A DNA stretch of 64,000 nt. It comes from Minisyncoccota bacterium. Lineage in GTDB: Bacteria; Patescibacteriota; Minisyncoccia; Phycocordibacterales; UBA5272. The DNA lies in the NCBI GenBank assembly GCA_018062965.1, contig JAGORG010000002.1, forward strand, positions 1,860-65,859, given 5' to 3'. The notes beneath the pieces were generated by a model that saw nothing but the letters and a program-made list of their open reading frames with translations, did no database searches and was not told the DNA's origin. The first letter of the stretch is position 1; each line of letters begins with the position of its first letter. A program made the position numbers and the translations under genes. Shown here piece after piece: positions 18,232-62,121 of the stretch.

Positions 18232-18290
18232 ATATAGTAAGTATACCACCACTCCTGGAGAGGTTGCATGTACTCAACGATATGTAGCCC

Positions 18291-18397
18291 TGGGTGGCAG
18301 ACATCTTTTAAAAAGTATTGCGCAAGCGGGCAGCTGAGCATGAGTGCATTTTCTAGCAAGAAAATGACACGTCTTTTTAAAAGATGTCTGCCACCCA
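18291..18397. repeat. 25 bp perfect inverted repeat around a 57 bp loop, upstream of the DUF305 gene
   Basis: tgggtggcagacatcttttaaaaag ... ctttttaaaagatgtctgccaccca. Confidence 0.6.
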
Positions 18398-18403
18398 GAA
18401 AGT

Positions 18404-18495
18404 AAAAACAAAAGCGGCGCCATAGGCTCCCGATTTCTTAGATTGTAATCAGTCTTTTGAAATCACAGTCCTGTAAGGGCGCCGCTTTTGTTTTT
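18404..18495. terminator. long hairpin (18 bp stem, 56 nt loop) downstream of the helicase gene; the loop carries a 47 nt core repeated at 60965
   Basis: aaaaacaaaagcggcgcc ... ggcgccgcttttgttttt. The stem is followed by a T-run on the minus strand. Confidence 0.5.
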
Positions 18496-18500
18496 AAAGA

Positions 18501-19808
18501 TTATCGATGATTTGGTACAAACGTGAGAGCATGACCCAACTTTGTTCCACGTCCTGTACGACCGATACGGTGAACGTATGTTTCGTAGTTATTTGGAATA
18601 TCGTAGTTGACCACAAGAGAGATATCTGAGATATCAAGCCCTCGCGCTGCAACGTCTGTTGCAATCACAACCTGCACACGTCCAGACTCAAGCGACTTCA
18701 CAGCACGCTCACGTTCACGGTTATGCATATCTCCGTGAAGAGCAAGTGCGTTAAACCCACGAGCCTTGAGTTCATCAGCGAGCTTATCAACGTGTCGCTT
18801 CATTTCGCGGAAGATAAGTACTTTTGAATATTCTGGCTTGTTAAGAATCTCATGAAGGGCTTCCAACTTGTCAGCATCGCTAGTTGCACGGATAACATCC
18901 TGCATCACAGACGCAGCTGTATCACGAGTTTTGATAGATACGGTTACTGGATCATTCAAGAAGTCACTCACAAGACGCTTAATCTCTGGAGAAAATGTCG
19001 CAGAGAAGAAAAGTCCTTGCTTTGCCTTTGGCATTGCTCCGAGGATAGAGCGCATATCGTCAATGAATCCCATATCAAGCATACGATCTGCTTCATCAAG
19101 TACGATTGAGTCAAAGTATGACATGTTGATCTTGCCGCGTTCGATAAGATCCTTTACACGTCCTGGAGTTCCGATAACAGCATGAACACCAAGTTCAAGT
19201 TCTTTTATCTGACGCATGATTGGAGCACCACCCACACAAGCAACAGAAAAGAGTTTCATGCCGCGAGTAAAGTTGATGAACTCTGCTTCTACCTGAAGCG
19301 CAAGCTCGCGAGTAGGAGTGAGCACCATGATCTTCTGATCATTGTTTGCTACGAGTTTATTGATAAGTGGAATAAGAAATGCTGCAGTCTTTCCAGTTCC
19401 AGTTGAGGCGATACCTACAACATCTTTACCAGAAAGCGCTACAGGAATAGCTTGGTCCTGAATAGCAGATGGATGGATAAGACCCTTTGCGGTAAGGTTT
19501 GCAGACAATGTTTCAGCAATACCAAAATCCATAAATGAATTTGTTGGTGTATATGTGTCTGTTTCGCTTACTGCGACTTCTTTATTGATAAATAGCTTTT
19601 CATCGATGAAGTCCTTGCGGAAACCCTTCTTTGGATTAAACGGCTTTGCAGCTCCTCCAGAACGAGAACCGAATCGTCCACGTGAAGAACCTCCACGAGA
19701 AAATCCACCTTCGCGACGAGGTGATGAAAATGAGCGGCCACGTGATGGACGATCTGAGAAACGAGAACGTGAGCCAGTATCTGACCCACCAGTTGTAATG
19801 GTGTACAT
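18501..19808 (-). CDS. DEAD-box ATP-dependent RNA helicase with N-terminal RG/RS-rich region
   Basis: Q-motif, Walker A motif GTGKTAAF, DEAD box, SAT and HRIGRTGR. The start is ambiguous: it may extend to 19880. Confidence 0.85.
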   Translation of the reverse strand: MYTITTGGSDTGSRSRFSDRPSRGRSFSSPRREGGFSRGGSSRGRFGSRSGGAAKPFNPKKGFRKDFIDEKLFINKEVAVSETDTYTPTNSFMDFGIAETLSANLTAKGLIHPSAIQDQAIPVALSGKDVVGIASTGTGKTAAFLIPLINKLVANNDQKIMVLTPTRELALQVEAEFINFTRGMKLFSVACVGGAPIMRQIKELELGVHAVIGTPGRVKDLIERGKINMSYFDSIVLDEADRMLDMGFIDDMRSILGAMPKAKQGLFFSATFSPEIKRLVSDFLNDPVTVSIKTRDTAASVMQDVIRATSDADKLEALHEILNKPEYSKVLIFREMKRHVDKLADELKARGFNALALHGDMHNRERERAVKSLESGRVQVVIATDVAARGLDISDISLVVNYDIPNNYETYVHRIGRTGRGTKLGHALTFVPNHR

Positions 19809-20144: not shown

Positions 20145-20172
20145 AATAAAAAACCCGCCGAAACGGGTTTTC
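20145..20172 (-). terminator. hairpin aaacccgccgaaacgggttt preceded by an A-run
   Basis: Sits downstream of the minus-strand gene ending at 20194. Confidence 0.5.
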
Positions 20173-20193
20173 CGCCGTTGGGCGAGTTGCAGT

Positions 20194-20652
20194 TCAGTGC
20201 ACAGTCTGGATGCGCTTCTGGGCTTGCGCCACGAAGCAGTTCACCTGACCTTCACCTTCCAGCAAACAGAACGCGAGGAACGCGATACTGTCTGCGTCTT
20301 CCGTGGAAGGCGAACCCCACGCCGACTTTTTGGCCGTCTCAGCGAGAAGCTGGCGCTGACCGATGAGTTCGCGGTAGAAGTCGTCGACGTTGTTGTCGTC
20401 GCCGACGTTCTTCACGAGCTCGGGCAGGAGTGCCACGACCTTGGTCATCGCCGTTTTGCCGAAGATCCGCGAGAAGCAGGCCTCCAGCATTTCGGGAGTG
20501 ACGTCAGGGCGCAAGCGCACGGGTTCGTCCCAGTTGGTCATATAGGTCTCGTGGACCATCCTGAACACCTTCGATGCCAACTGCCTGTGAGGGAAGAAGG
20601 TCACGTCGGTGGGGTTTTGACGGAACTGGGAGAAGTTTTCAAAGAAGTTCAT
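20194..20652 (-). CDS. hypothetical protein (152 aa), start MNFFENF; GC-elevated
   Basis: AGGAGG lies 5 nt upstream of the ATG. Has its own promoter and terminator. GC is clearly higher than in flanking core genes. Confidence 0.55.
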   Translation of the reverse strand: MNFFENFSQFRQNPTDVTFFPHRQLASKVFRMVHETYMTNWDEPVRLRPDVTPEMLEACFSRIFGKTAMTKVVALLPELVKNVGDDNNVDDFYRELIGQRQLLAETAKKSAWGSPSTEDADSIAFLAFCLLEGEGQVNCFVAQAQKRIQTVH

Positions 20653-20703
20653 AGACCCTCCTCTACGGTTAGTGGCGGGATTGCCACAGTCTTGAACATA
20701 TAA

Positions 20704-20732
20704 AATATAGCACACTATTATGTAAAAGTCAA
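20704..20732 (-). promoter_or_regulatory. near-consensus sigma70 promoter TTGACT-17-TATATT
   Basis: The minus strand reads ttgacttttacataatagtgtgctatatt. Confidence 0.5.
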
Positions 20733-20761
20733 GTATGTAAGCCTATACCTACAAGGTATTT

Positions 20762-20793
20762 AAAAATAAAAAAACCGCCGGTGAGGGCGGTTG
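20762..20793 (-). terminator. hairpin aaccgccggtgagggcggtt preceded by an A-run
   Basis: Same style as the 20145 terminator. Confidence 0.5.
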
Positions 20794-20817
20794 TGGTTGT
20801 CTGACCGGCGCGGTCGA

Positions 20818-21111
20818 TCAGGCGGCAACGGGTTCGTCTTCTGCGACGAGACCTTCTTCGCCGTAGAGGAAGAACTGCGCGCCGGACTTGCTGTTCTTGC
20901 GGTATTCCGCGAGCGCCATCAGACCGGCGGCCTTGGTTTGGATGCTGCCCTGCATCAGGTCGACGTTGCCGTCCGGCACATCGTCAACGGTCTGCGGAGG
21001 CTTCGCACCCGGCGGCAGGCCACCAAAGATGAGGATGACAAACTTGTCGGCAGAGTTCTGGTCGGGACGGGCCTGGAAGACACCATCTTTCGTGTTGCGA
21101 TTGTTGTCCAT
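20818..21111 (-). CDS. hypothetical small protein (about 97 aa), high GC
   Basis: The ORF has its own promoter and terminator. Start taken at MDNNRN; an alternative ATG lies at 21165. Confidence 0.45.
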   Translation of the reverse strand: MDNNRNTKDGVFQARPDQNSADKFVILIFGGLPPGAKPPQTVDDVPDGNVDLMQGSIQTKAAGLMALAEYRKNSKSGAQFFLYGEEGLVAEDEPVAA

Positions 21112-21182
21112 GTCTGCTCCTTTTGTAGCAAATGTCCGTCTGGGCAATACGCCAGCTGAAAACATGAATGAACGAACAGAAT

Positions 21183-21209
21183 AGTATAACGAATTTAAAA
21201 TAAAGTCAA
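21183..21209 (-). promoter_or_regulatory. sigma70-like promoter TTGACT-15/16-TATACT
   Basis: The minus strand reads ttgactttattttaaattcgttatact. Confidence 0.4.
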
Positions 21210-21239
21210 GTTGTTTTTTAAAAACTAGCTGTGTTTAGA

Positions 21240-21658: not shown

Positions 21659-21782
21659 ATCTCCATTCCACCACAGCGGCAGATTTATATGTGAATCTAC
21701 TATTTATTTATAAAAAGTCAATACGTACTCCTACTTTGTAAGCTGTATCACACACTCATGCTCATAGGGTAGATAAAATACA

Positions 21783-21816
21783 AAAATAAAAAAACCCGCT
21801 GGATTGCGCGGGTTTA
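21783..21816 (-). terminator. hairpin aaacccgctggattgcgcgggttt preceded by an A-run
   Basis: Fourth stereotyped terminator. Confidence 0.45.
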
Positions 21817-21830
21817 GCGCGGTCGGCGGG

Positions 21831-22232
21831 TTACAGACCTGACTCAGAATAGCAAGCTGAACTTGGGTTCTTCACGGTCAGCCTCCGTACCGTCTTGATA
21901 AGTTTACCGCGCAGTTGGCCAGGGTTTGTGTCCAGGAACTCGGTAAAGGTAACAACTTCACCCGTAGAACGAAAGCAGGTTTGTTTACCGCGCTTGAAGA
22001 CGGCGACACCCTTAGCTTTACCATTTCCACTATATGAAGGAATTGCCTCTTCATTCCAGCAGGGTTCAAACCTGACCAATTCCTTGGTCTTTTCGTTCCA
22101 CACCACGGCGGCGCAGGCACGCTTGGTCCAGAACACTTGGTTGAGACTGTTCTCGTCCTTTTTCAGATCGCCAGCATAGCTAACGACCATCGCAAAAAAC
22201 AAGAACGAACTGATAATCAATTTCTTCAGCAT
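21831..22232 (-). CDS. secreted hypothetical protein (133 aa) with signal peptide
   Basis: N-terminal signal-like sequence MLKKLIISSFLFFAMVVSYAG. AGGAG ribosome binding site. Confidence 0.55.
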   Translation of the reverse strand: MLKKLIISSFLFFAMVVSYAGDLKKDENSLNQVFWTKRACAAVVWNEKTKELVRFEPCWNEEAIPSYSGNGKAKGVAVFKRGKQTCFRSTGEVVTFTEFLDTNPGQLRGKLIKTVRRLTVKNPSSACYSESGL

Positions 22233-22295
22233 AGTCTTCTCCTCTAAGGTTGACCGATTTGTATAAGAGCTGAGGCACGAAACCTCATCTCTTAT

Positions 22296-22324
22296 ACTAT
22301 AGCATATATTTACATAAAAGTCAA
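22296..22324 (-). promoter_or_regulatory. near-consensus sigma70 promoter TTGACT-17-TATAGT
   Basis: The minus strand reads ttgacttttatgtaaatatatgctatagt. Confidence 0.5.
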
Positions 22325-22356
22325 GTACTTGTTGTGTTTATTTATAGACATACGAG

Positions 22357-22457
22357 CCAATAAACCCTTTTGAATCAATTCTCGGAGAATGGCGATTCGA
22401 GAGGGAAATGCTTTTTCAGCAGAAAAAGACATTGTTTGATTCAAAAGGGTTTATTGG
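22357..22457. repeat. 22 bp perfect inverted repeat around a 57 bp spacer
   Basis: ccaataaacccttttgaatcaa ... ttgattcaaaagggtttattgg. Confidence 0.55.
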
Positions 22458-22465
22458 GTAGAGAG

Positions 22466-25089: not shown

Positions 25090-25141
25090 CTGACTATAGC
25101 GCTTATGTGTGCCCGCGCGTAGCAAACTGAGCTACGCTGAC
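25090..25141 (-). pseudogene. degenerate partial copy of the 5' half of the adjacent tRNA-Met
   Basis: Begins GTCAGCGTAGCTCAGTT and includes a CATAAG loop, but cannot be folded into a cloverleaf. Confidence 0.4.
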
Positions 25142-25152
25142 ATATTTTAACC

Positions 25153-51701: not shown

Positions 51702-53213
51702 ATGAATAATCACACCAGAAAGTTTTTCATATACACTCGCAAATCAACCGACACAGAAGATCGGCAAGTGAGAAGCATTTCAGATCAACTGGCCGAACTC
51801 AAAGAATTAGCGGTTAAAGAGCAAATTGAGGTCGTTGATATTTTTGTAGAAAAACAAACCGCTAAAAGTCCGGGTCGGCCAGTATTTAATGAAATGCTTC
51901 TCCGTATCGAGCAAGGCGAAGCAAACGGAATTTTAGCGTGGCACCCCGACCGATTAGCGAGAAATAGTGTTGATGGTGGCAAAATTATCTACTTGCTCGA
52001 TACCGAAAAACTTGCCGAACTGAAGTTCCCAACTTTCTGGTGTGATCCGACACCGCAAGGCAAGTTCATGCTTTCAATCGCTTTTTCGCAATCCAAGTAT
52101 TATGTTGATAATCTCTCGGAAAATATTAAGCGTGGTCATCGCAACAAAGTGAAAGACGGAATATGGCCTCAAATGTCTCCGCTCGGATATGTAAATGTGA
52201 AAGGTGCTGGAATAGTACCCGATGAGAATATTGCTCCGTTAATCAAGAAAACATTTGAGGCATACTCGTCTGGGTCTTTCACTTTGCGCCAACTCCGCGA
52301 CAAATTTAACGGACTTGGCTTGAAGCGAAAAAGCGGAAAGGAACTTGCGGTGTCGAACTATCAGCAAATCCTCAAAAATCCTATTTACACCGGTCTGATG
52401 AGGTATAACGGAGAGATTTTTGAGGGAAAGCACGAACCGATTATCACAAAGAAACTTTTTGATTCCGTTCAAGAAGTGATGATGAGAAAATCTAAGCCGA
52501 AAGGTAGAGGCTTGAAAGATTATCTATACAGGGGATTTTTCCGTTGCGGAGAATGCGGTTGTTTCATTACTACCGAAACACAGAAAGGCCATAACTATCT
52601 CCGCTGTACCAAACGGAAAAATCCTTGTGAGCAAAAATATGTCCGCGAGGAAATCATCACTTCTCAAATCAAAACGGAATTACAAAAAGTTTCTTTGCCA
52701 CTCGATTGGGCAAACTGGATGATTGTCGAAAACGAGAAAGATCGACAATCGGAAGTCCAATCGAGCGAGATTTTTTCTCAGAAGACAAAAGATGAAATTT
52801 CTCTTTTGGATTCCAAAATTGAGAAGCTGATGAACGCCTATTTGGAAAACGTTTTATCACTTGAGGAATATCGTGATTCTAAAAACAAGTTGGTTGCCTC
52901 AAAACAGCTTCTCAAAGAGAAATTCTCATTTTTTGAGAAAAAATCTCATAATCGGTTCGAACTTGCTGATAGATTCATAAAATCAAACGTAGAATTGGCA
53001 AACGAGGGAACAAATGAAGATTTTCTTCATTTGTTCAAAAAAGTCGGTTCGAACTTTTTAATTAAAGATCGAACCGTACTTTTTGAGCCACGCGGAGCGT
53101 GGCGAATCCTTTCAGAATCAGGATTTTGTGGGGGGAATACAGAACAGACGGCGCTTCGCGCCGACCATATTTTTTCGGGAAATTTGAATTCCGAATTCTG
53201 GCGGAGAATGTGA
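51702..53213 (+). CDS. large serine recombinase (resolvase N-domain, recombinase domain, zinc ribbon)
   Basis: N-terminus YTRKSTDTEDRQVRSISDQ with the catalytic Ser. RCGECGC...C...C zinc ribbon. About 503 aa. Confidence 0.85.
   Translation: MNNHTRKFFIYTRKSTDTEDRQVRSISDQLAELKELAVKEQIEVVDIFVEKQTAKSPGRPVFNEMLLRIEQGEANGILAWHPDRLARNSVDGGKIIYLLDTEKLAELKFPTFWCDPTPQGKFMLSIAFSQSKYYVDNLSENIKRGHRNKVKDGIWPQMSPLGYVNVKGAGIVPDENIAPLIKKTFEAYSSGSFTLRQLRDKFNGLGLKRKSGKELAVSNYQQILKNPIYTGLMRYNGEIFEGKHEPIITKKLFDSVQEVMMRKSKPKGRGLKDYLYRGFFRCGECGCFITTETQKGHNYLRCTKRKNPCEQKYVREEIITSQIKTELQKVSLPLDWANWMIVENEKDRQSEVQSSEIFSQKTKDEISLLDSKIEKLMNAYLENVLSLEEYRDSKNKLVASKQLLKEKFSFFEKKSHNRFELADRFIKSNVELANEGTNEDFLHLFKKVGSNFLIKDRTVLFEPRGAWRILSESGFCGGNTEQTALRADHIFSGNLNSEFWRRM
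53085..53204. repeat. IR-b': inverted partner of 51555-51674, inside the recombinase 3' coding end
   Basis: Ends with ...ctggcgg exactly at the tRNA 3' end. Confidence 0.9.
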
Positions 53214-53288
53214 GATTCGAACTCACGGAACCGGTAAAGGTTCGACGGTTTAGTAAACCGTTGGTTTAAACCACTCACCCAATTCTCC
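53202..53288 (-). tRNA. type II tRNA (long variable arm, G73, Ser-like) with an apparent ACT anticodon
   Basis: Acceptor GGAGAAT/ATTCTCC. T-arm GTGAGTTCGAATCTCAC. Anticodon stem ACGGT/ACCGT with loop TTACTAA. Needs a tRNAscan check. Confidence 0.6.
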
Positions 53289-53493: not shown

Positions 53494-53581
53494 GCGGAGA
53501 CGATGAGATTCGAACTCATGAAGGGCGTAAACCCTTGCCTCGTTAGCAGTGAGGTGCCTTCGACCAGCTCAGCCACGTCTC
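53494..53581 (-). tRNA. tRNA-Ser (GCT)
   Basis: Anticodon loop CTGCTAA. Long variable arm AAGGG..CCCTT. T-arm CATGAGTTCGAATCTCATG. Discriminator G73. Confidence 0.8.
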
Positions 53582-53823
53582 CATTCTTCTATTACTTTTC
53601 TAAAACCGTTACCTCCTTTATACGACTTAAGAAATTTTTCTACTTTTCTTACTTCTTCGATTGAGGAAAACTCTTTTGAGCAAAGTAGACTCCATTCACC
53701 GCGAGAAGTAGTACGTCCACCTGTATGACTCTTATGTCTTTGTGTTCGCTTAGAAAGTTCAAGACACGAACCAGTGTAATGCTTACCTGTATTCTTGTCT
53801 TGAAGAACATAAACGAAAGCCAT
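53569..53823 (-). CDS. GIY-YIG nuclease domain protein (YhbQ/UPF0213-like)
   Basis: FVYVLQDKNTGKHYTGSCLELSKRTQRHKS...GEWSLL resembles the YhbQ family. The stop overlaps the tRNA-Ser 5' end. Confidence 0.6.
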   Translation of the reverse strand: MAFVYVLQDKNTGKHYTGSCLELSKRTQRHKSHTGGRTTSRGEWSLLCSKEFSSIEEVRKVEKFLKSYKGGNGFRKVIEEWRRG

Positions 53824-53839
53824 TTTTGTAGTATAAACC

Positions 53840-53906
53840 CTTGCCTCGTTAGCAGCTCGCCCCGCTAAGCGGGGTAAAGTGCCTTCGACCAGCTCAGCCA
53901 CGTCTC
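53840..53906 (-). pseudogene. partial duplicate of the tRNA-Ser(GCT) 5' half with a 23 nt hairpin insertion
   Basis: GGAGACGTGGCTGAGCTGGTCGAAGGCAC[TTTACCCCGCTTAGCGGGGCGAG]CTGCTAACGAGGCAAGGGTTTA, then diverges into the GIY-YIG gene. Confidence 0.6.
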
Positions 53907-54147
53907 CGTATTATTTTTGTCTAAAACACTTATTGTTGTGCACGCTTTGATATATATCTTATCAGGTCTTCGCTGTAAGCTCGCATCAAAAGTTTGCTAA
54001 CTTTTGATATCTTCGGAGCCAAGCTTCTCGAGCAACGTCTCCGTATTTTTATACAATTTACCTACACACTTCCTGCACGTTTTTATTCAATATTTTCCTA
54101 CTGAATGTGTTGTATCTTATCACAAAACACCCTTCTGTGCTACCGAA

Positions 54148-60926: not shown

Positions 60927-60964
60927 ATATTTCTCATGGTAGCACTAATTGATAACCCCCTAAA

Positions 60965-61011
60965 GGGACTGCGATTTCAAAAGATTGAGTACAATCTAAG
61001 AAATCGGGAGC
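60965..61011. repeat. 47 nt core repeat, about 90% identical to the loop of the 18404-18495 hairpin (opposite orientation)
   Basis: gggactgcgatttcaaaagattgagtacaatctaagaaatcgggagcc versus the reverse complement of 18424-18474. Confidence 0.7.
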
Positions 61012-61134
61012 CATACGCTCCGCTTCGGGTCACAGCTTTCTGCTGCGCCTCAAGCTGTGACCCTAAGCCTAAATAATTGGAAACCCATTATTGGAGATAT
61101 AAGACTGTTTGCGGAATTCCAGAGAAGTTTTGTC

Positions 61135-61740
61135 TTAAATGTATAAGAAAGTAAAAGATATAATAAAAGCCATAAGTCCAAAGAAAATAGGCTCTTTGAG
61201 AAATCGTCGTAACGTTTTTACTACTGCAAAACCTGCTATGAAATAAAATGGCATTACAAGAATGGTGGTTAAGTGGAAAAGGTCTGGCGGAAAGTAAAAG
61301 AAAATGTAGGTATTAAATACTAGAAGAGATGCTACGTTCAGTAACGCCTCAAGTGCTAAGGCGTCTAGTGCCATAACAATACCCCAGAAAGTATTACTTT
61401 TCCTCGTAAGTGTTGGATCAATTTTTGTGTGGAGTAAATATAAATGAAATCCATAATATATTGACCATATAAAAAATGAATATAGCGAAGTGTCTCCTCC
61501 GTGAACTGGAAAAACTTGGTATTGCCAAAGTGAATGACCAAACACTGTTCGACAAAATGTATTTATAACAACTTCACCAAATGGACCGATGAGCGCAAGT
61601 GTTCCACAGTAAACAAACAACTCGGATAAACGAATTTTGATTAAACCTTTATTGAGAAGGGAGTGTATTGTGTACAGCACCGCCCCCAACAAAATAAGCA
61701 GTGCTACAAGTGAAATTAGATTAGGTTCAAAAGCTAGCAT
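61135..61740 (-). CDS. polytopic membrane protein (201 aa)
   Basis: 5-6 hydrophobic helices. Confidence 0.5.
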   Translation of the reverse strand: MLAFEPNLISLVALLILLGAVLYTIHSLLNKGLIKIRLSELFVYCGTLALIGPFGEVVINTFCRTVFGHSLWQYQVFPVHGGDTSLYSFFIWSIYYGFHLYLLHTKIDPTLTRKSNTFWGIVMALDALALEALLNVASLLVFNTYIFFYFPPDLFHLTTILVMPFYFIAGFAVVKTLRRFLKEPIFFGLMAFIISFTFLYI

Positions 61741-61747
61741 GTATCTG

Positions 61748-61819
61748 TGACCCTACGCGGAATCGAACCGCGCTTCCAGGCATGAGAAGCCTGTGTCCTA
61801 ACCGATAGACGATAGGGCC
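61748..61819 (-). tRNA. tRNA-Glu (CTC)
   Basis: Anticodon arm CAGGCTTCTCATGCCTG. T-arm CGCGGTTCGATTCCGCG. Confidence 0.7.
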
Positions 61820-61912
61820 ATATTTATTTTATATTTTTAGAAACATGAGCTTTAGAAACTATTTTACTTTGGACACAGGAGACCTGCTTAGCCTCCCGGC
61901 ACGATGTGCTCA

Positions 61913-61937
61913 TCGCCTAACCGATAGACGATAGGGC
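61913..61937 (-). pseudogene. 24 nt duplicate of the tRNA-Glu 5' end
   Basis: GGCCCTATCGTCTATCGGTTAGG repeated 116 bp upstream of the intact gene. The following sequence contains CCTGTGTCC, complementary to tRNA positions 22-30. Confidence 0.55.
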
Positions 61938-62121
61938 CAAGTATTTTATTTGTTTAAAACATGAACTTTGAACACCTTAGAAACAGGACCAAAGTACCCG
62001 AAACTATACCATATTTAGGGTAACTTTTCACGTCATGGACAGCATTTGATATTCCACCAAAAAAGGAATAGTATGGGACTTAAGAACGTTCCTTAATCAA
62101 CAACCAACCTGGAGGTGAACC

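Follow-up and report, generated by a model that had tools for sequence, protein, structure and literature searches.

Two copies of a hairpin-forming unit

The window (the whole 64,000-nt stretch analyzed) contains two copies of a short noncoding unit, each between minus-strand ORFs. Copy A is a 53-nt unit at 18427–18479 on the plus strand, lying in the loop of a long hairpin directly after the stop of a DEAD-box helicase gene, and copy B is a 55-nt unit at 60956–61010 on the minus strand. Copy A is antisense and copy B sense to the neighboring ORFs, in agreement with the opposite orientations claimed in a sequence-only reading of this DNA. That reading had also described a 47-nt core from the hairpin loop as recurring at 60965–61011 with about 90% identity; the core is identical at 44/47 positions (three mismatches, ∼94%), and a repeat finder gives a longer, 68-nt match at 84% identity that pairs 18412–18479 on the plus strand with 60958–61025 on the minus strand. 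A 40-nt pattern derived from the core, with two N positions, has exactly two matches in the window (18425–18464, plus; 60973–61012, minus) and none in 100 dinucleotide-preserving shuffles of it. When a covariance model of the core was run over the whole window with filters off, only copies B (73.3 bits) and A (65.4 bits) were recovered, the next-best match scoring 13 bits.

The minimal unit spans 53–55 nt and is composed of CTCCC, a 33-nt bulged hairpin (P2), GCAGT, and a 3-bp mini-hairpin, which usually ends in AGG(G), varies in sequence, and bears no relation to P2; the whole can be closed by a short GCU/AGU helix. Copy B follows this order through to its mini-hairpin, CCCTTTAGGGGG. Its P2, delimited by folding, occupies 60973–61005 on the minus strand (GATTTC TT AGATTG TACT CAATCT TTT GAAATC) and has a folding energy of −10.9 kcal/mol as single-stranded DNA (z = −4.2). 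Six contigs of the same strain, from metagenomes or MAGs, carry copy B unchanged, and in L042, a relative with 87% identity, it is 94% conserved. Metagenomes in which the window strain occurs include SRR11088367, SRR11088391, and ERZ724505. Copy A has CTCCC, P2, ACAGT, and then the mini-hairpin CCTGTAAGGG; its P2 (18432–18464, plus strand; GATTTC TT AGATTG TAAT CAGTCT TTT GAAATC), delimited by folding and pair counts, contains one G.T wobble, and a C.A mismatch replaces the closing C:G pair. As DNA this slightly degenerate copy folds weakly (−5.5 kcal/mol, z = −1.5), and the AGG shared by its 5' flank and the 3' end of the unit leaves its limits ambiguous by 3 nt.

A dispersed family in Patescibacteria

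The sequence-only reading had proposed a dispersed repeat, and ∼60 copies are present at 49 loci in public genomes and metagenomes, making the family much larger than is visible from the window alone. These loci come from two exact-pattern scans beyond the window: a pattern with 24 specified bases yielded 20 genome loci with 24 copies, and a 20-mer scan yielded 29 metagenome loci, with every left half having a right half within about 110 nt. The ∼60 copies come from about 420 kb of fetched DNA, and the covariance model gave 61 matches in 360 kb of fetched loci versus two in the 64-kb window. All of the titled genome loci (20/20) belong to Patescibacteria MAGs. Viral contigs and the records of phages and plasmids gave no match to the core pattern, so a phage or plasmid origin was rejected, and the element is, as far as sampled, confined to Patescibacteria. 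Even between MAGs assigned by their labels to different candidate phyla, P2 hardly varies in sequence. REP-type or MITE-type repeats are not usually so uniform, and binding of a functional RNA or DNA site by a conserved host factor would explain this as well.

Across the family, the 13 pairs of P2 are 99% paired with double changes in seven, a covariation count that is partly circular because the sequences were collected with patterns that require pairing or with a structure-aware model. Subfamilies of the GATTTC, GACTTT, ATTTTA, and GTTTTC types occur; diverged ones keep P2 through compensatory changes, and its asymmetric bulge is conserved. The three GCU/AGU pairs, which played no part in sequence collection, form in 28–30 of the 30 distinct sequences, with the outermost pair being G.U in 24, G-C in three, and A-U in one. 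Folded as single-stranded DNA, units reach about −10 kcal/mol, with z near −4. They start with CTCCC and usually finish with ...AGG(G), ...AGT, or ...GTA; in most copies these termini are not complementary, leaving the unit without terminal inverted repeats.

The core matches no Rfam family. With Rfam covariance models at gathering thresholds, neither the window nor the 20 genome loci gave a match other than ordinary tRNAs, and with E up to 10 only chance-level microRNA-type matches appeared; no description of the element was found in Rfam or in the literature searched. A tRNA or tRNA-like gene was likewise rejected, as ARAGORN and Rfam call ordinary tRNAs only, and the P2 loop does not work as an anticodon loop, which would need C at position 37 and whose "anticodon" varies.

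Copy A lies in a terminator-like hairpin after the helicase gene

The hairpin reported at 18404–18495 is real: its arms (AAAAACAAAAGCGGCGCC, 18404–18421, and GGCGCCGCTTTTGTTTTT, 18478–18495, 5' and 3' on the plus strand, respectively) form a perfect 18-bp stem (−45.9 kcal/mol, z = −9.4). Read on the minus strand, it begins 6 nt past the helicase stop codon at 18501, and both the GC core of the stem and its T-run are terminator-like. The relative L058, with a 97% identical helicase protein and 94% identical flanking DNA, has the same arms around a 3-nt loop (...AAAAACGGCGCC-CAT-GGCGCCGTTTTT...). Relative to this empty site, the window loop has 53 extra bases, the whole of copy A, and no target duplication. 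The long inverted repeat around copy A is therefore the host terminator's and not the element's, and copy A is best read as a recent insertion into the loop of the putative helicase terminator. Formally, the difference from L058 could be a precise deletion instead of an insertion.

A pattern scanner calls neither the window hairpin nor that of L058 as a terminator, which we attribute to pairing of the T-run with the A-run; the window loop also exceeds the scanner's 8-nt limit. Since the insert is self-folding, it should not keep the mRNA from forming the 18-bp stem of the terminator with its U-tract. A terminator setting had been claimed for both copies. It probably stands for copy A, where the terminator-like stem is present without the insert in L058, and falls for copy B, whose neighboring GC hairpin lacks a T-run on either strand.

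Copy B borders rearranged DNA

That GC hairpin does adjoin copy B as had been described, at 61027–61063 (GGGTCACAGCTT...AAGCTGTGACCC), and lies outside the repeat; its first bases fall within 14 nt that directly repeat the 3' end of tRNA-Glu. Between the two, the 5' flank of copy B (61011–61026, minus strand; GAAGCGGAGCGTATGG) resembles the 5' arm and loop of copy-hosting terminators and is comparable to AAAGCGGCGCCATAGG at copy A. A complementary 3' arm after copy B is absent, the best result of a flank-stem search being 4 bp.

Copy B is best read as an older copy, located downstream of tRNA-Glu (immediately so in the ancestral arrangement), that now borders two strain-specific rearrangements. 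In L004 and L005 the element is absent and the upstream gene is different, which rules out a simple inversion between the inverted copies as the source of the strain difference at this site.

Insertion sites

All copies checked are intergenic, and the usual site is in, or at the edge of, a pre-existing hairpin loop. Orthologous or paralogous sites either have the complete unit or lack it altogether, and target-site duplications are absent at the L058/window pair, at filled and empty units of L014, and at nested copies. Insertion directly follows the G of a W-A-K-G consensus: of 55 copies, 52 have G at position −1, 53 have G or T at −2, 41 have A at −3, and 49 have A or T at −4, with AATG (16), TAGG (10), and AAGG (8) the commonest 5' flanks.

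L014 carries tandem pseudo-tRNA units, the first filled (TCTAATG[CTCCC...GAAGTA]GTAGGAC) and later ones empty (TCTAATGGTAGGAC). Nested copies in L040/L053, L043, L047, and L056 have a diverged 54-nt unit that separates the AGATTG of an outer copy from its TAMT without a base to spare, and the outer consensus is restored when the inner unit is excised. Tandem or adjacent copies occur in L036/L046, L054, and L010.

Copy-hosting terminators share similar arms, AAAAGCG(C/G)G...C(C/G)CGCTTTT, within and between genomes, and one contig has four copies with almost identical arms; TCATTCCCGCG hairpins are another host context. Some units sit in the D-loop of 5' pseudo-copies of tRNA-Gln, and in L031 and L049 the unit is in the antisense strand of a tRNA T-arm. 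The pseudo-tRNA hosts have neither T-arm nor 3' acceptor strand, are missed by both ARAGORN and Rfam, and adjoin an intact tRNA. The order partial 5' tRNA copy, inserted segment, intact tRNA recurs in these genomes. At least 12 lineages have a D-loop copy in a tRNA-Gln pseudo-copy just upstream of the intact tRNA-Gln, and the pseudo-copy tracks the sequence of its own tRNA. This recurrence upstream of tRNA-Gln hints at retention for function.

Orientation and neighboring genes

Among copies enclosed by a flanking stem of ≥ 7 bp, eight are antisense and two sense to the gene whose 3' end faces them. At the orthologous sites of L029 and L030, the hairpin and element are 100% identical over 88 nt but inverted, with flanks at 93%. 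Loops can therefore flip between stem arms, and because of this inversion we give the 8:2 bias less weight as a DNA-level strand preference. Such flipping could also erase a replication-orientation bias: GC skew is uniformly negative across the window and copies A and B are oppositely oriented, so they lack the strict replication-relative orientation expected for IS608-like elements.

No protein family recurs among the 148 ORFs within 2.5 kb of copies (no cluster larger than three), transposases are not enriched among them, and Pfam assigns housekeeping families only; no linked protein gene was found. Neither RAYT, TnpA/TnpB, nor reverse transcriptase genes were seen near copies, up to 8–13 kb around each, and these stretches yielded no autonomous partner or mobilizing enzyme.

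Nature of the element

The unit is missing from the L058 site, occurs nested and in tandem, and has no fixed position or orientation with respect to genes, as is typical of an insertion element. We consider it probable that both sites in the window are copies of a small, noncoding, non-autonomous, structure-dependent insertion element, best read as related in kind to REP/REPIN or IS200/IS605-derived elements. Such an element would spread as DNA through a single-stranded, hairpin-folded intermediate that an enzyme supplied in trans may recognize, and only harmless insertions, in terminator loops and in arms of dead tRNA copies, would survive. By analogy, the best available candidate for the mobilizing enzyme is a Y1/HUH transposase of the IS200/IS605 or RAYT type, an assignment that we put forward tentatively.

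The main alternative is that the unit works as a structured RNA module, whether as a small RNA or as a domain that binds protein, built on the closing helix and kept by selection, with the terminator-loop and tRNA-adjacent copies serving as working parts of transcripts. Strong conservation of P2, the unpaired CTCCC, and GCAGT across distant MAGs would suit it, as would the compensatory changes in P2 and a G.U pair conserved on this strand only. The copy upstream of tRNA-Gln is retained behind a duplicate of that tRNA's AT-rich, promoter-like upstream sequence, and in the ancestral arrangement copy B followed tRNA-Glu directly. We nevertheless regard this alternative as unlikely, given the absence of an Rfam family, the dispensability of the unit at the helicase terminator of a 94%-identical strain, and the missing association with a gene family. 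Terminator-borne copies are mostly antisense to the ending transcript (8 vs 2), so that the conserved strand would then be untranscribed, as at copy A, and copies nested in another's functional hairpin, or in tandem, are hard to square with a working module. The small-RNA family suggested by the sequence-only reading finds no support on the same grounds: Rfam gives no match, no position or orientation is fixed relative to genes, the orthologous site of a close relative lacks the unit, and copies are nested and tandem.

Further routes would keep mobility and change its chemistry. An RNA-level element, a tiny intron-like or retro-element that enters RNA hairpin loops through chemistry akin to reverse splicing, or is copied by a reverse transcriptase, before it becomes fixed in DNA, could account for sites that are loops existing as RNA (tRNA D-loops, terminators, the unit's own loop), for the exact G^CTCCC junction, and for the strand-specific G.U pair; the tRNA-Gln-linked copies behind promoter-like sequence could be master copies, and the nesting resembles twintrons. 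We find it improbable all the same, because no ribozyme family matches and no reverse transcriptase lies near any copy, the units in L031 and L049 are antisense to the tRNA T-arm, and terminator copies are mostly antisense to the mRNA. To our knowledge, moreover, ∼54 nt is far below the size of any self-splicing intron. The hosts are terminators or pseudo-tRNAs that have lost their 3' halves, so splicing would restore nothing; introns of group I, group II, or the archaeal tRNA type were rejected on this ground, as removal would not make the host functional. A structure-guided element that inserts itself without a classical transposase, for instance a minimal hairpin of RNA or single-stranded DNA ligated to exposed hairpin loops by a nucleic-acid-processing enzyme of the host or by its own catalysis, is similarly doubtful to a high degree; under it, the conserved copy upstream of tRNA-Gln could be an expressed master. 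The exact G^CTCCC junction, the loop preference, copies that nest in the unit's own tetraloop, unpaired C-rich bases that do not vary, and the lack of a linked gene are compatible with self-insertion without demonstrating it. Least probable, in our judgment, is spread with no dedicated machinery, in which similar hairpins would recombine or undergo ectopic gene conversion, their homology arms being those of the terminators or paralogous tRNA sequence. Host terminator arms are indeed alike within and between genomes (four on one contig), L029 and L030 share arms and element at 100% with flanks at 93%, and the pseudo-tRNA copies track their own tRNA, suggesting conversion. But conversion has no explanation for insertions that are unit-precise in unrelated contexts without common flanking homology, namely the D-loop, the antisense T-arm, the P2 tetraloop, tandem junctions, and TCATTCCCGCG hairpins, nor for the conserved G^CTCCC junction.

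Several known types of site were also rejected. Two copies per 64 kb are far too few for a DNA-uptake sequence, and the unit boundaries are exact. Sites of the attC, dif, or recombinase type do not fit, as attC end motifs are absent and the asymmetric P2 bulge is conserved.

Relation to known repeats and significance

Classical MITEs have terminal inverted repeats and target-site duplications, both absent from this unit. REPs are typically species-specific, whereas this unit is common to very distant MAGs. As in REPs and REPINs, the copies are short, extragenic, noncoding, dispersed, imperfect hairpin palindromes; both kinds often lie at gene 3' ends, can insert in or beside each other, and have conserved unpaired bases at the hairpin (PMC3116915). 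REPs and REPINs differ in their conserved GTAG flank, in place of which the unit has CTCCC preceded by a loose W-A-K-G, and REPINs are inverted doublets, whereas the unit occurs singly, in direct tandem, or nested, with no inverted doublets seen. No RAYT gene was seen beside any copy within the 8–13 kb or less around each, and unlike REPs, copies of the unit sit inside the loops of other hairpins.

IS200/IS605 elements make no target duplication, insert 3' of a short sequence, lack terminal inverted repeats, and are strand-asymmetric; the unit, too, makes no target duplication, has no terminal inverted repeats, and is strand-asymmetric. It also shares with them a hairpin near the end beside conserved single-stranded bases (PMC3116915). 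At 53–55 nt, however, it is much smaller than members of that family, its W-A-K-G is looser than a defined tetranucleotide target, and its orientation in the window is not tied to one replichore. Miniatures derived from IS200/IS605 (PATEs) have related subterminal hairpins at both ends, whereas the unit conserves P2 only.

Like the unit, the small dispersed repeats (SDRs) that Elhai et al. reported in 2008 from cyanobacteria are very small and mobile, are said to nest in each other or in other repeats, and have no known enzyme; they are about half the unit's length, are not known outside heterocystous cyanobacteria, and have no sequence similarity to it. Hairpin repeats of organelles (sponge mitochondrial RHE, fungal double-hairpin elements, and algal palindromic repeats) resemble the unit as small selfish invaders of intergenic regions in very compact genomes, variable even among close relatives and not linked to any known enzyme (PMC2800124). 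Their composition and structure are diverse among lineages, whereas the bacterial family described here keeps one sequence across many lineages, has a precise junction, and nests in the tetraloop. Insertion sequences such as ISPpu9/10, ISPa11, and ISRm19, among others, insert in REP palindromes, i.e. extragenic hairpins (PMC1525189), but encode a transposase, unlike this noncoding unit of ∼54 nt. TIGR arrays, Tas-associated guide RNA arrays known in Parcubacteria (PMC12045711), were rejected because the unit has neither box C/box D motifs nor variable spacers and is not arrayed.

Patescibacteria genomes are among the smallest and most streamlined of Bacteria, and the persistence of a selfish 54-nt element across their lineages is therefore worth explaining. 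Its loop-dwelling rule, which includes its own loop, suggests that the insertion mechanism may read nucleic-acid structure, and a mobilizing enzyme, if found, could represent a structure-specific insertion activity on single-stranded DNA or RNA in a poorly explored phylum. For annotation, the unit is a sequence marker of noncoding insertions that can account for oversized "terminator loops" and broken tRNA-like sequences and prevent their being mis-called. For strain comparison, the window and L058 offer a natural presence/absence polymorphism.

Distribution of the repeat

The sequence-only reading had paired a 47-nt core in the loop of the 18404–18495 hairpin with an oppositely oriented match about 42 kb away, and both sequences are present at those places. 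A 40-nt core pattern matches the 64-kb window solely at 18425–18464 (+) and 60973–61012 (−), with 0 matches in 100 dinucleotide-preserving shuffles. Between copy A (18427–18479, +) and copy B (60956–61010, −) the 47 nt differ by three mismatches, and ungapped extension aligns 18412–18479 with 60958–61025 (68 nt, 84% identity). With filters off, a covariance model of the core recovers from the window the two copies alone (73.3 and 65.4 bits; next match 13 bits). Because the flanking ORFs are on the minus strand at both loci, copy A is antisense and copy B sense to its neighbours. The hairpin around copy A, 3′ of a DEAD-box helicase gene, has perfect 18-bp arms (predicted fold −45.9 kcal/mol, z = −9.4).

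The window organism is a member of the Patescibacteria (CPR), as judged from its helicase, whose best homologues are labelled Candidatus Parcubacteria, Paceibacterota or Nomurabacteria, from the 100% identity that part of the window shares with a contig of assembly GCA_020047435.1 and with several metagenomic contigs, and from its ordinary bacterial gene content (DEAD-box helicase, NUDIX, UDG, Mur ligase, tRNAs). The earlier suggestion of a dispersed repeat was right. Using a pattern shaped on the structure with 24 specified bases, GATTTCNNAGATTGNNNNCANTCTNNNGAAATC, we found 24 copies in 20 loci when searching one genome per species, all 20 in Patescibacteria MAGs, and one 40-kb contig bears four. 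The 20-mer GCTCCCGATTTCTTAGATTG matched 29 metagenome loci, and the covariance model gave 61 matches in 360 kb of fetched loci (handles beginning with L). The GATTTCNNAGATTGNNNNCANTCTNNNGAAATC pattern found nothing in viral contigs, and phage and plasmid collections held no copy.

Anatomy of the unit

The 53–55-nt unit consists of CTCCC, a bulged hairpin (P2; GATTTC-TT-AGATTG-TAMT-CARTCT-KNN-GAAATC), GCAGT and a terminal 3-bp mini-hairpin such as CCTGTAAGG, CCCTTTAGGG or ACTCTTGAGT. Near-invariance extends beyond the bases specified in the searches to CTCCC, 5′ of P2, and GCAGT, 3′ of it.

The hairpin is conserved with compensatory change. Across 30 distinct cores, the 13 pairs of P2 are 99% paired and seven have changed on both sides, a count that is partly circular since the sequences were gathered with rules demanding pairing. 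Double changes convert the outer stem from GAUUUC/GAAAUC to GACUUU/AAAGUC, AACUUU/AAAGUU or AUUUUA/UAAAAU, and the inner stem from AGAUUG/CAAUCU to AAUUUG/CAAAUU, AGAAUG/CAUUCU or AAAGUG/CACUUU. Three extra pairs that the collection rules did not demand, G-C-U before CCC with A-G-U after GC, form in 28–30 of the 30 cores; the outermost is G·U in 24, G-C in 3 and A-U in 1, and the wobble is possible on the CTCCC strand only. Folded as single-stranded DNA, copy B and one nested unit reach about −10 to −11 kcal/mol (z about −4), and copy A, whose P2 has one G·T and one C·A, only −5.5 kcal/mol.

Discrete insertion and host sites

Copies are present or absent as blocks. L058, a close relative of the window (helicase protein 97% identical; DNA flanks 94% and 90%), has an empty site for copy A directly 3′ of the helicase stop, ...ATCGATAATCTTTAAAAACAAAAACGGCGCC-CAT-GGCGCCGTTTTTGTT..., and the terminator-like hairpin of the window shares these arms, with a loop longer by 53 bases and no target duplication. 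AGG stands both ahead of CTCCC and at the unit's end, so the boundary of copy A admits more than one register, of which one reconstructs with zero differences and that starting at CTCCC costs one substitution. Orthologues more distant than L058 likewise have plain terminator-like hairpins at this site. At its end, locus L014 has tandem repeats of a pseudo-tRNA unit; in the first of several tRNA-Gln-like units, 64 nt (CTCCC...GAAGTA) separate TCTAATG from GTAGGAC, and the following units read TCTAATGGTAGGAC.

Units reside in hairpin loops, including their own. At L040/L053, L043, L047 and L056 a diverged 54-nt unit (CTCCC...GCAGTCCTGNTNAGGG) occupies the outer copy's tetraloop, exactly between AGATTG and TAMT, and its removal in silico restores the outer consensus; these outer copies sit in four different hosts. 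Tandem or adjacent copies occur at L036/L046, L054 and L010. The colinear relatives L029 and L030 (flanks 80–93% identical) carry the same 88-nt hairpin and element, 100% identical, in opposite orientation. Among copies within a flanking stem of ≥ 7 bp, eight are antisense and two sense to the gene ending there, a bias we give little weight because L029 and L030 show either loop orientation at one site.

All copies checked are intergenic, in four kinds of host. Terminator-like hairpins (A-run, GC stem, T-run) host, among others, copy A, L009 (three copies), L012, L013, L015, L022, L025, L029, L035, L038, L041 and L044. At least 12 loci have the element in the D-loop of a 5′ partial tRNA-Gln copy with the junction TCTAATG^CTCCC (L010, L011, L014, L017, L018, L020, L027, L028, L032, L034, L050, L052, L055). 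The partial copy lies 100–250 nt upstream of the intact tRNA-Gln on the same strand and has lineage-specific substitutions in common with it, such as TGCCCGATCG (L018) and GGGGAAT (L017). Such pseudo-copies frequently carry further small insertions, including an anticodon-loop insert of ~35 nt common to L010 and L014. Other tRNA fragments include a 5′ copy of tRNA-Ser at L040 and, at L031 and L049, partial repeats of a tRNA 3′ end with the unit in the antisense strand of the T-arm (junctions GCAGG^ and GGTAGG^). The fourth host is a recurrent hairpin, TCATTCCCGCG...CGGGAATCC, at L043, L048 and L051. On these three unrelated contigs the element is housed by a recurrent structured sequence, GTCATTCCCGCG ... 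CGGGAATCCAG ... CTGGATCCC ... GGGATGAC (L043, 760–1160; L048, about 1380–1480; L051, 1–260), which may be a repeat family itself.

The 5′ junction is fixed: G immediately precedes CTCCC in 52 of 55 distinct copies, as the last base of the four-position upstream consensus W-A-K-G. No gene linked to the unit was found. Similarity clustering of 148 ORFs lying no more than 2.5 kb from a copy gave a largest cluster of three members, Pfam families found in two or more of them are housekeeping (SecA, Mur ligase, helicases, peptidyl-tRNA hydrolase and similar), none of the ten ORFs closest to copies is related to mobility, and no mobilising enzyme was found among ORFs within this distance.

Nature of the element

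We consider the unit probably a selfish insertion element: non-autonomous mobile DNA whose recognition would depend on the folded hairpin together with the unpaired bases of CTCCC and GCAGT. Insertions are probably tolerated in terminator loops and in the arms of dead tRNA copies. Since the insert folds on itself, the host stem should still be able to form; for copy A, the hairpin on the mRNA strand is predicted to keep its 18-bp stem (−40.3 kcal/mol). Against this reading, the sequence varies unusually little between distant MAGs, the arrangement at tRNA-Gln is conserved, no mobilising enzyme was found near the copies, and A and B point in opposite directions in a window whose GC skew is negative throughout.

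Such conservation would fit a functional RNA module, and the sequence-only reading had named a small-RNA family as one of two possibilities. That possibility finds no support: the unit is dispensable at the helicase site, often lies antisense, nests within itself, lacks gene association and matches no family in an Rfam scan of the core up to E 10, so that we regard a functional RNA as unlikely. Loop targets and an exact junction would also fit an RNA-level or intron-like element, a reading we hold to be very improbable, as its hosts do not depend on splicing, the RNA is in some cases antisense to the insertion, and nothing of this size is known to be self-splicing. Gene conversion between similar hairpins may contribute among terminators but cannot put a unit into unrelated loops, and as the means of spread it is hardly credible.

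For the insertion element, the nearest mechanistic analogy would be the single-strand "peel and paste" of IS200/IS605 TnpA and the related RAYT/REP system. Nesting like that seen here is reported for cyanobacterial small dispersed repeats. Hairpins are the substrates of IS200/IS605 and RAYT/REP, whose insertions fall 3′ of a short motif and leave no duplication (described in part in PMC3116915). The element resembles IS200/IS605 derivatives in its lack of duplication and hairpin dependence but differs in having no second related hairpin; by this analogy, a Y1/HUH enzyme specifically is a tentative candidate for its mobilisation. Its lifestyle is like that of organelle repetitive hairpin-forming elements (PMC2800124), and insertion sequences targeting REP palindromes illustrate that hairpins can serve as insertion sites (PMC1525189). 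A classical MITE is ruled out, the unit having neither terminal inverted repeats nor target duplication; the element departs from the REP/REPIN definition in lacking the conserved GTAG and the doublets; and TIGR arrays, known from Parcubacteria, were excluded as its identity. No description of the element was found in the searched literature. It represents a new variant among small non-autonomous hairpin repeats, and stands out for placing loops within loops and for being widespread in a phylum with streamlined genomes.

Context of copy B

Copy B is unchanged in six contigs of the same strain. In L042, a locus 87% identical to the window, tRNA-Glu is followed directly by a GC hairpin starting inside the tRNA 3′ end and then by copy B, whereas the window has ~690 nt inserted there (61055–61758), carrying a 201-aa membrane ORF (61135–61740, −). 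The insert is flanked by a 14-nt direct repeat of the tRNA-Glu 3′ end, 13/14 identical (61745–61758, GCGTAGGGTCACAG; 61055–61068, GCTTAGGGTCACAG), and looks like a tiny integration into that end without an integrase gene. Similarity to L042 ends where the DUF1653 gene starts, at 60927. Loci L004 and L005 encode a DUF1653 protein identical to the window's (DNA 93–94% identical); their similarity begins at 60948, and the upstream side is another gene without the element. This puts copy B between two strain-specific breakpoints, which fall 8 and 29 nt past its 3′ end. Its 5′ flank resembles half a terminator arm, no complementary arm follows, and we read copy B as a probably older copy that no longer has its host hairpin.

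The tRNA-Glu (61747–61819) also has a partial 5′ copy 119 nt upstream (61891–61955, −), identical over its first 24 nt and duplicated along with AT-rich upstream sequence; similar tRNA-like fragments lie at 25101–25148 between tRNA-Met genes.

Other structures in the window

At the tRNA-Ser(GCT) locus (53494–53907, −), the tRNA is preceded by a 5′ pseudo-copy (53834–53907) whose anticodon arm bears an additional small hairpin, CCCCGCTTAGCGGGG. An 84-aa GIY-YIG ORF (53569–53823, Pfam E = 2.7e-10) fills the gap and ends within the real tRNA. The layout of partial 5′ copy, insert and intact tRNA is that of the element-hosting tRNA-Gln loci.

Perfect inverted repeats of 206 nt (49167–49372/51355–51560) and 120 nt (51555–51674/53085–53204) enclose the genes for a D-Ala-D-Ala ligase and for a large serine recombinase of 503 aa (51702–53213); segment 49167–53213 may be invertible or an assembly artefact. 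A tRNA-Ser called with the unusual anticodon ACT (53199–53288) overlaps the 120-nt repeat with its 3′ end.

Segments 20161–21235 and 21761–22465 are missing from L058 (92–94% identical), with direct repeats at 21731–21769/22466–22504 (95%), 20756–20789/21231–21264 and 20701–20735/22293–22327; a 173-aa ORF in the former (20194–20715) has no Pfam match. Segment 57316–58669, with an MFS transporter gene, is absent from strain contig L005 (94–97% identical). Two long perfect hairpins, 18290–18398 and 22357–22457 (arms 26 and 22 bp), each have a 57-nt loop with a common sub-hairpin, TGCWTTTTC..GAAAAWGACA. L058 conserves the loop of the 18290–18398 hairpin on arms of other sequence that are still roughly complementary, and the two loops may represent a second family of loop-borne inserts.
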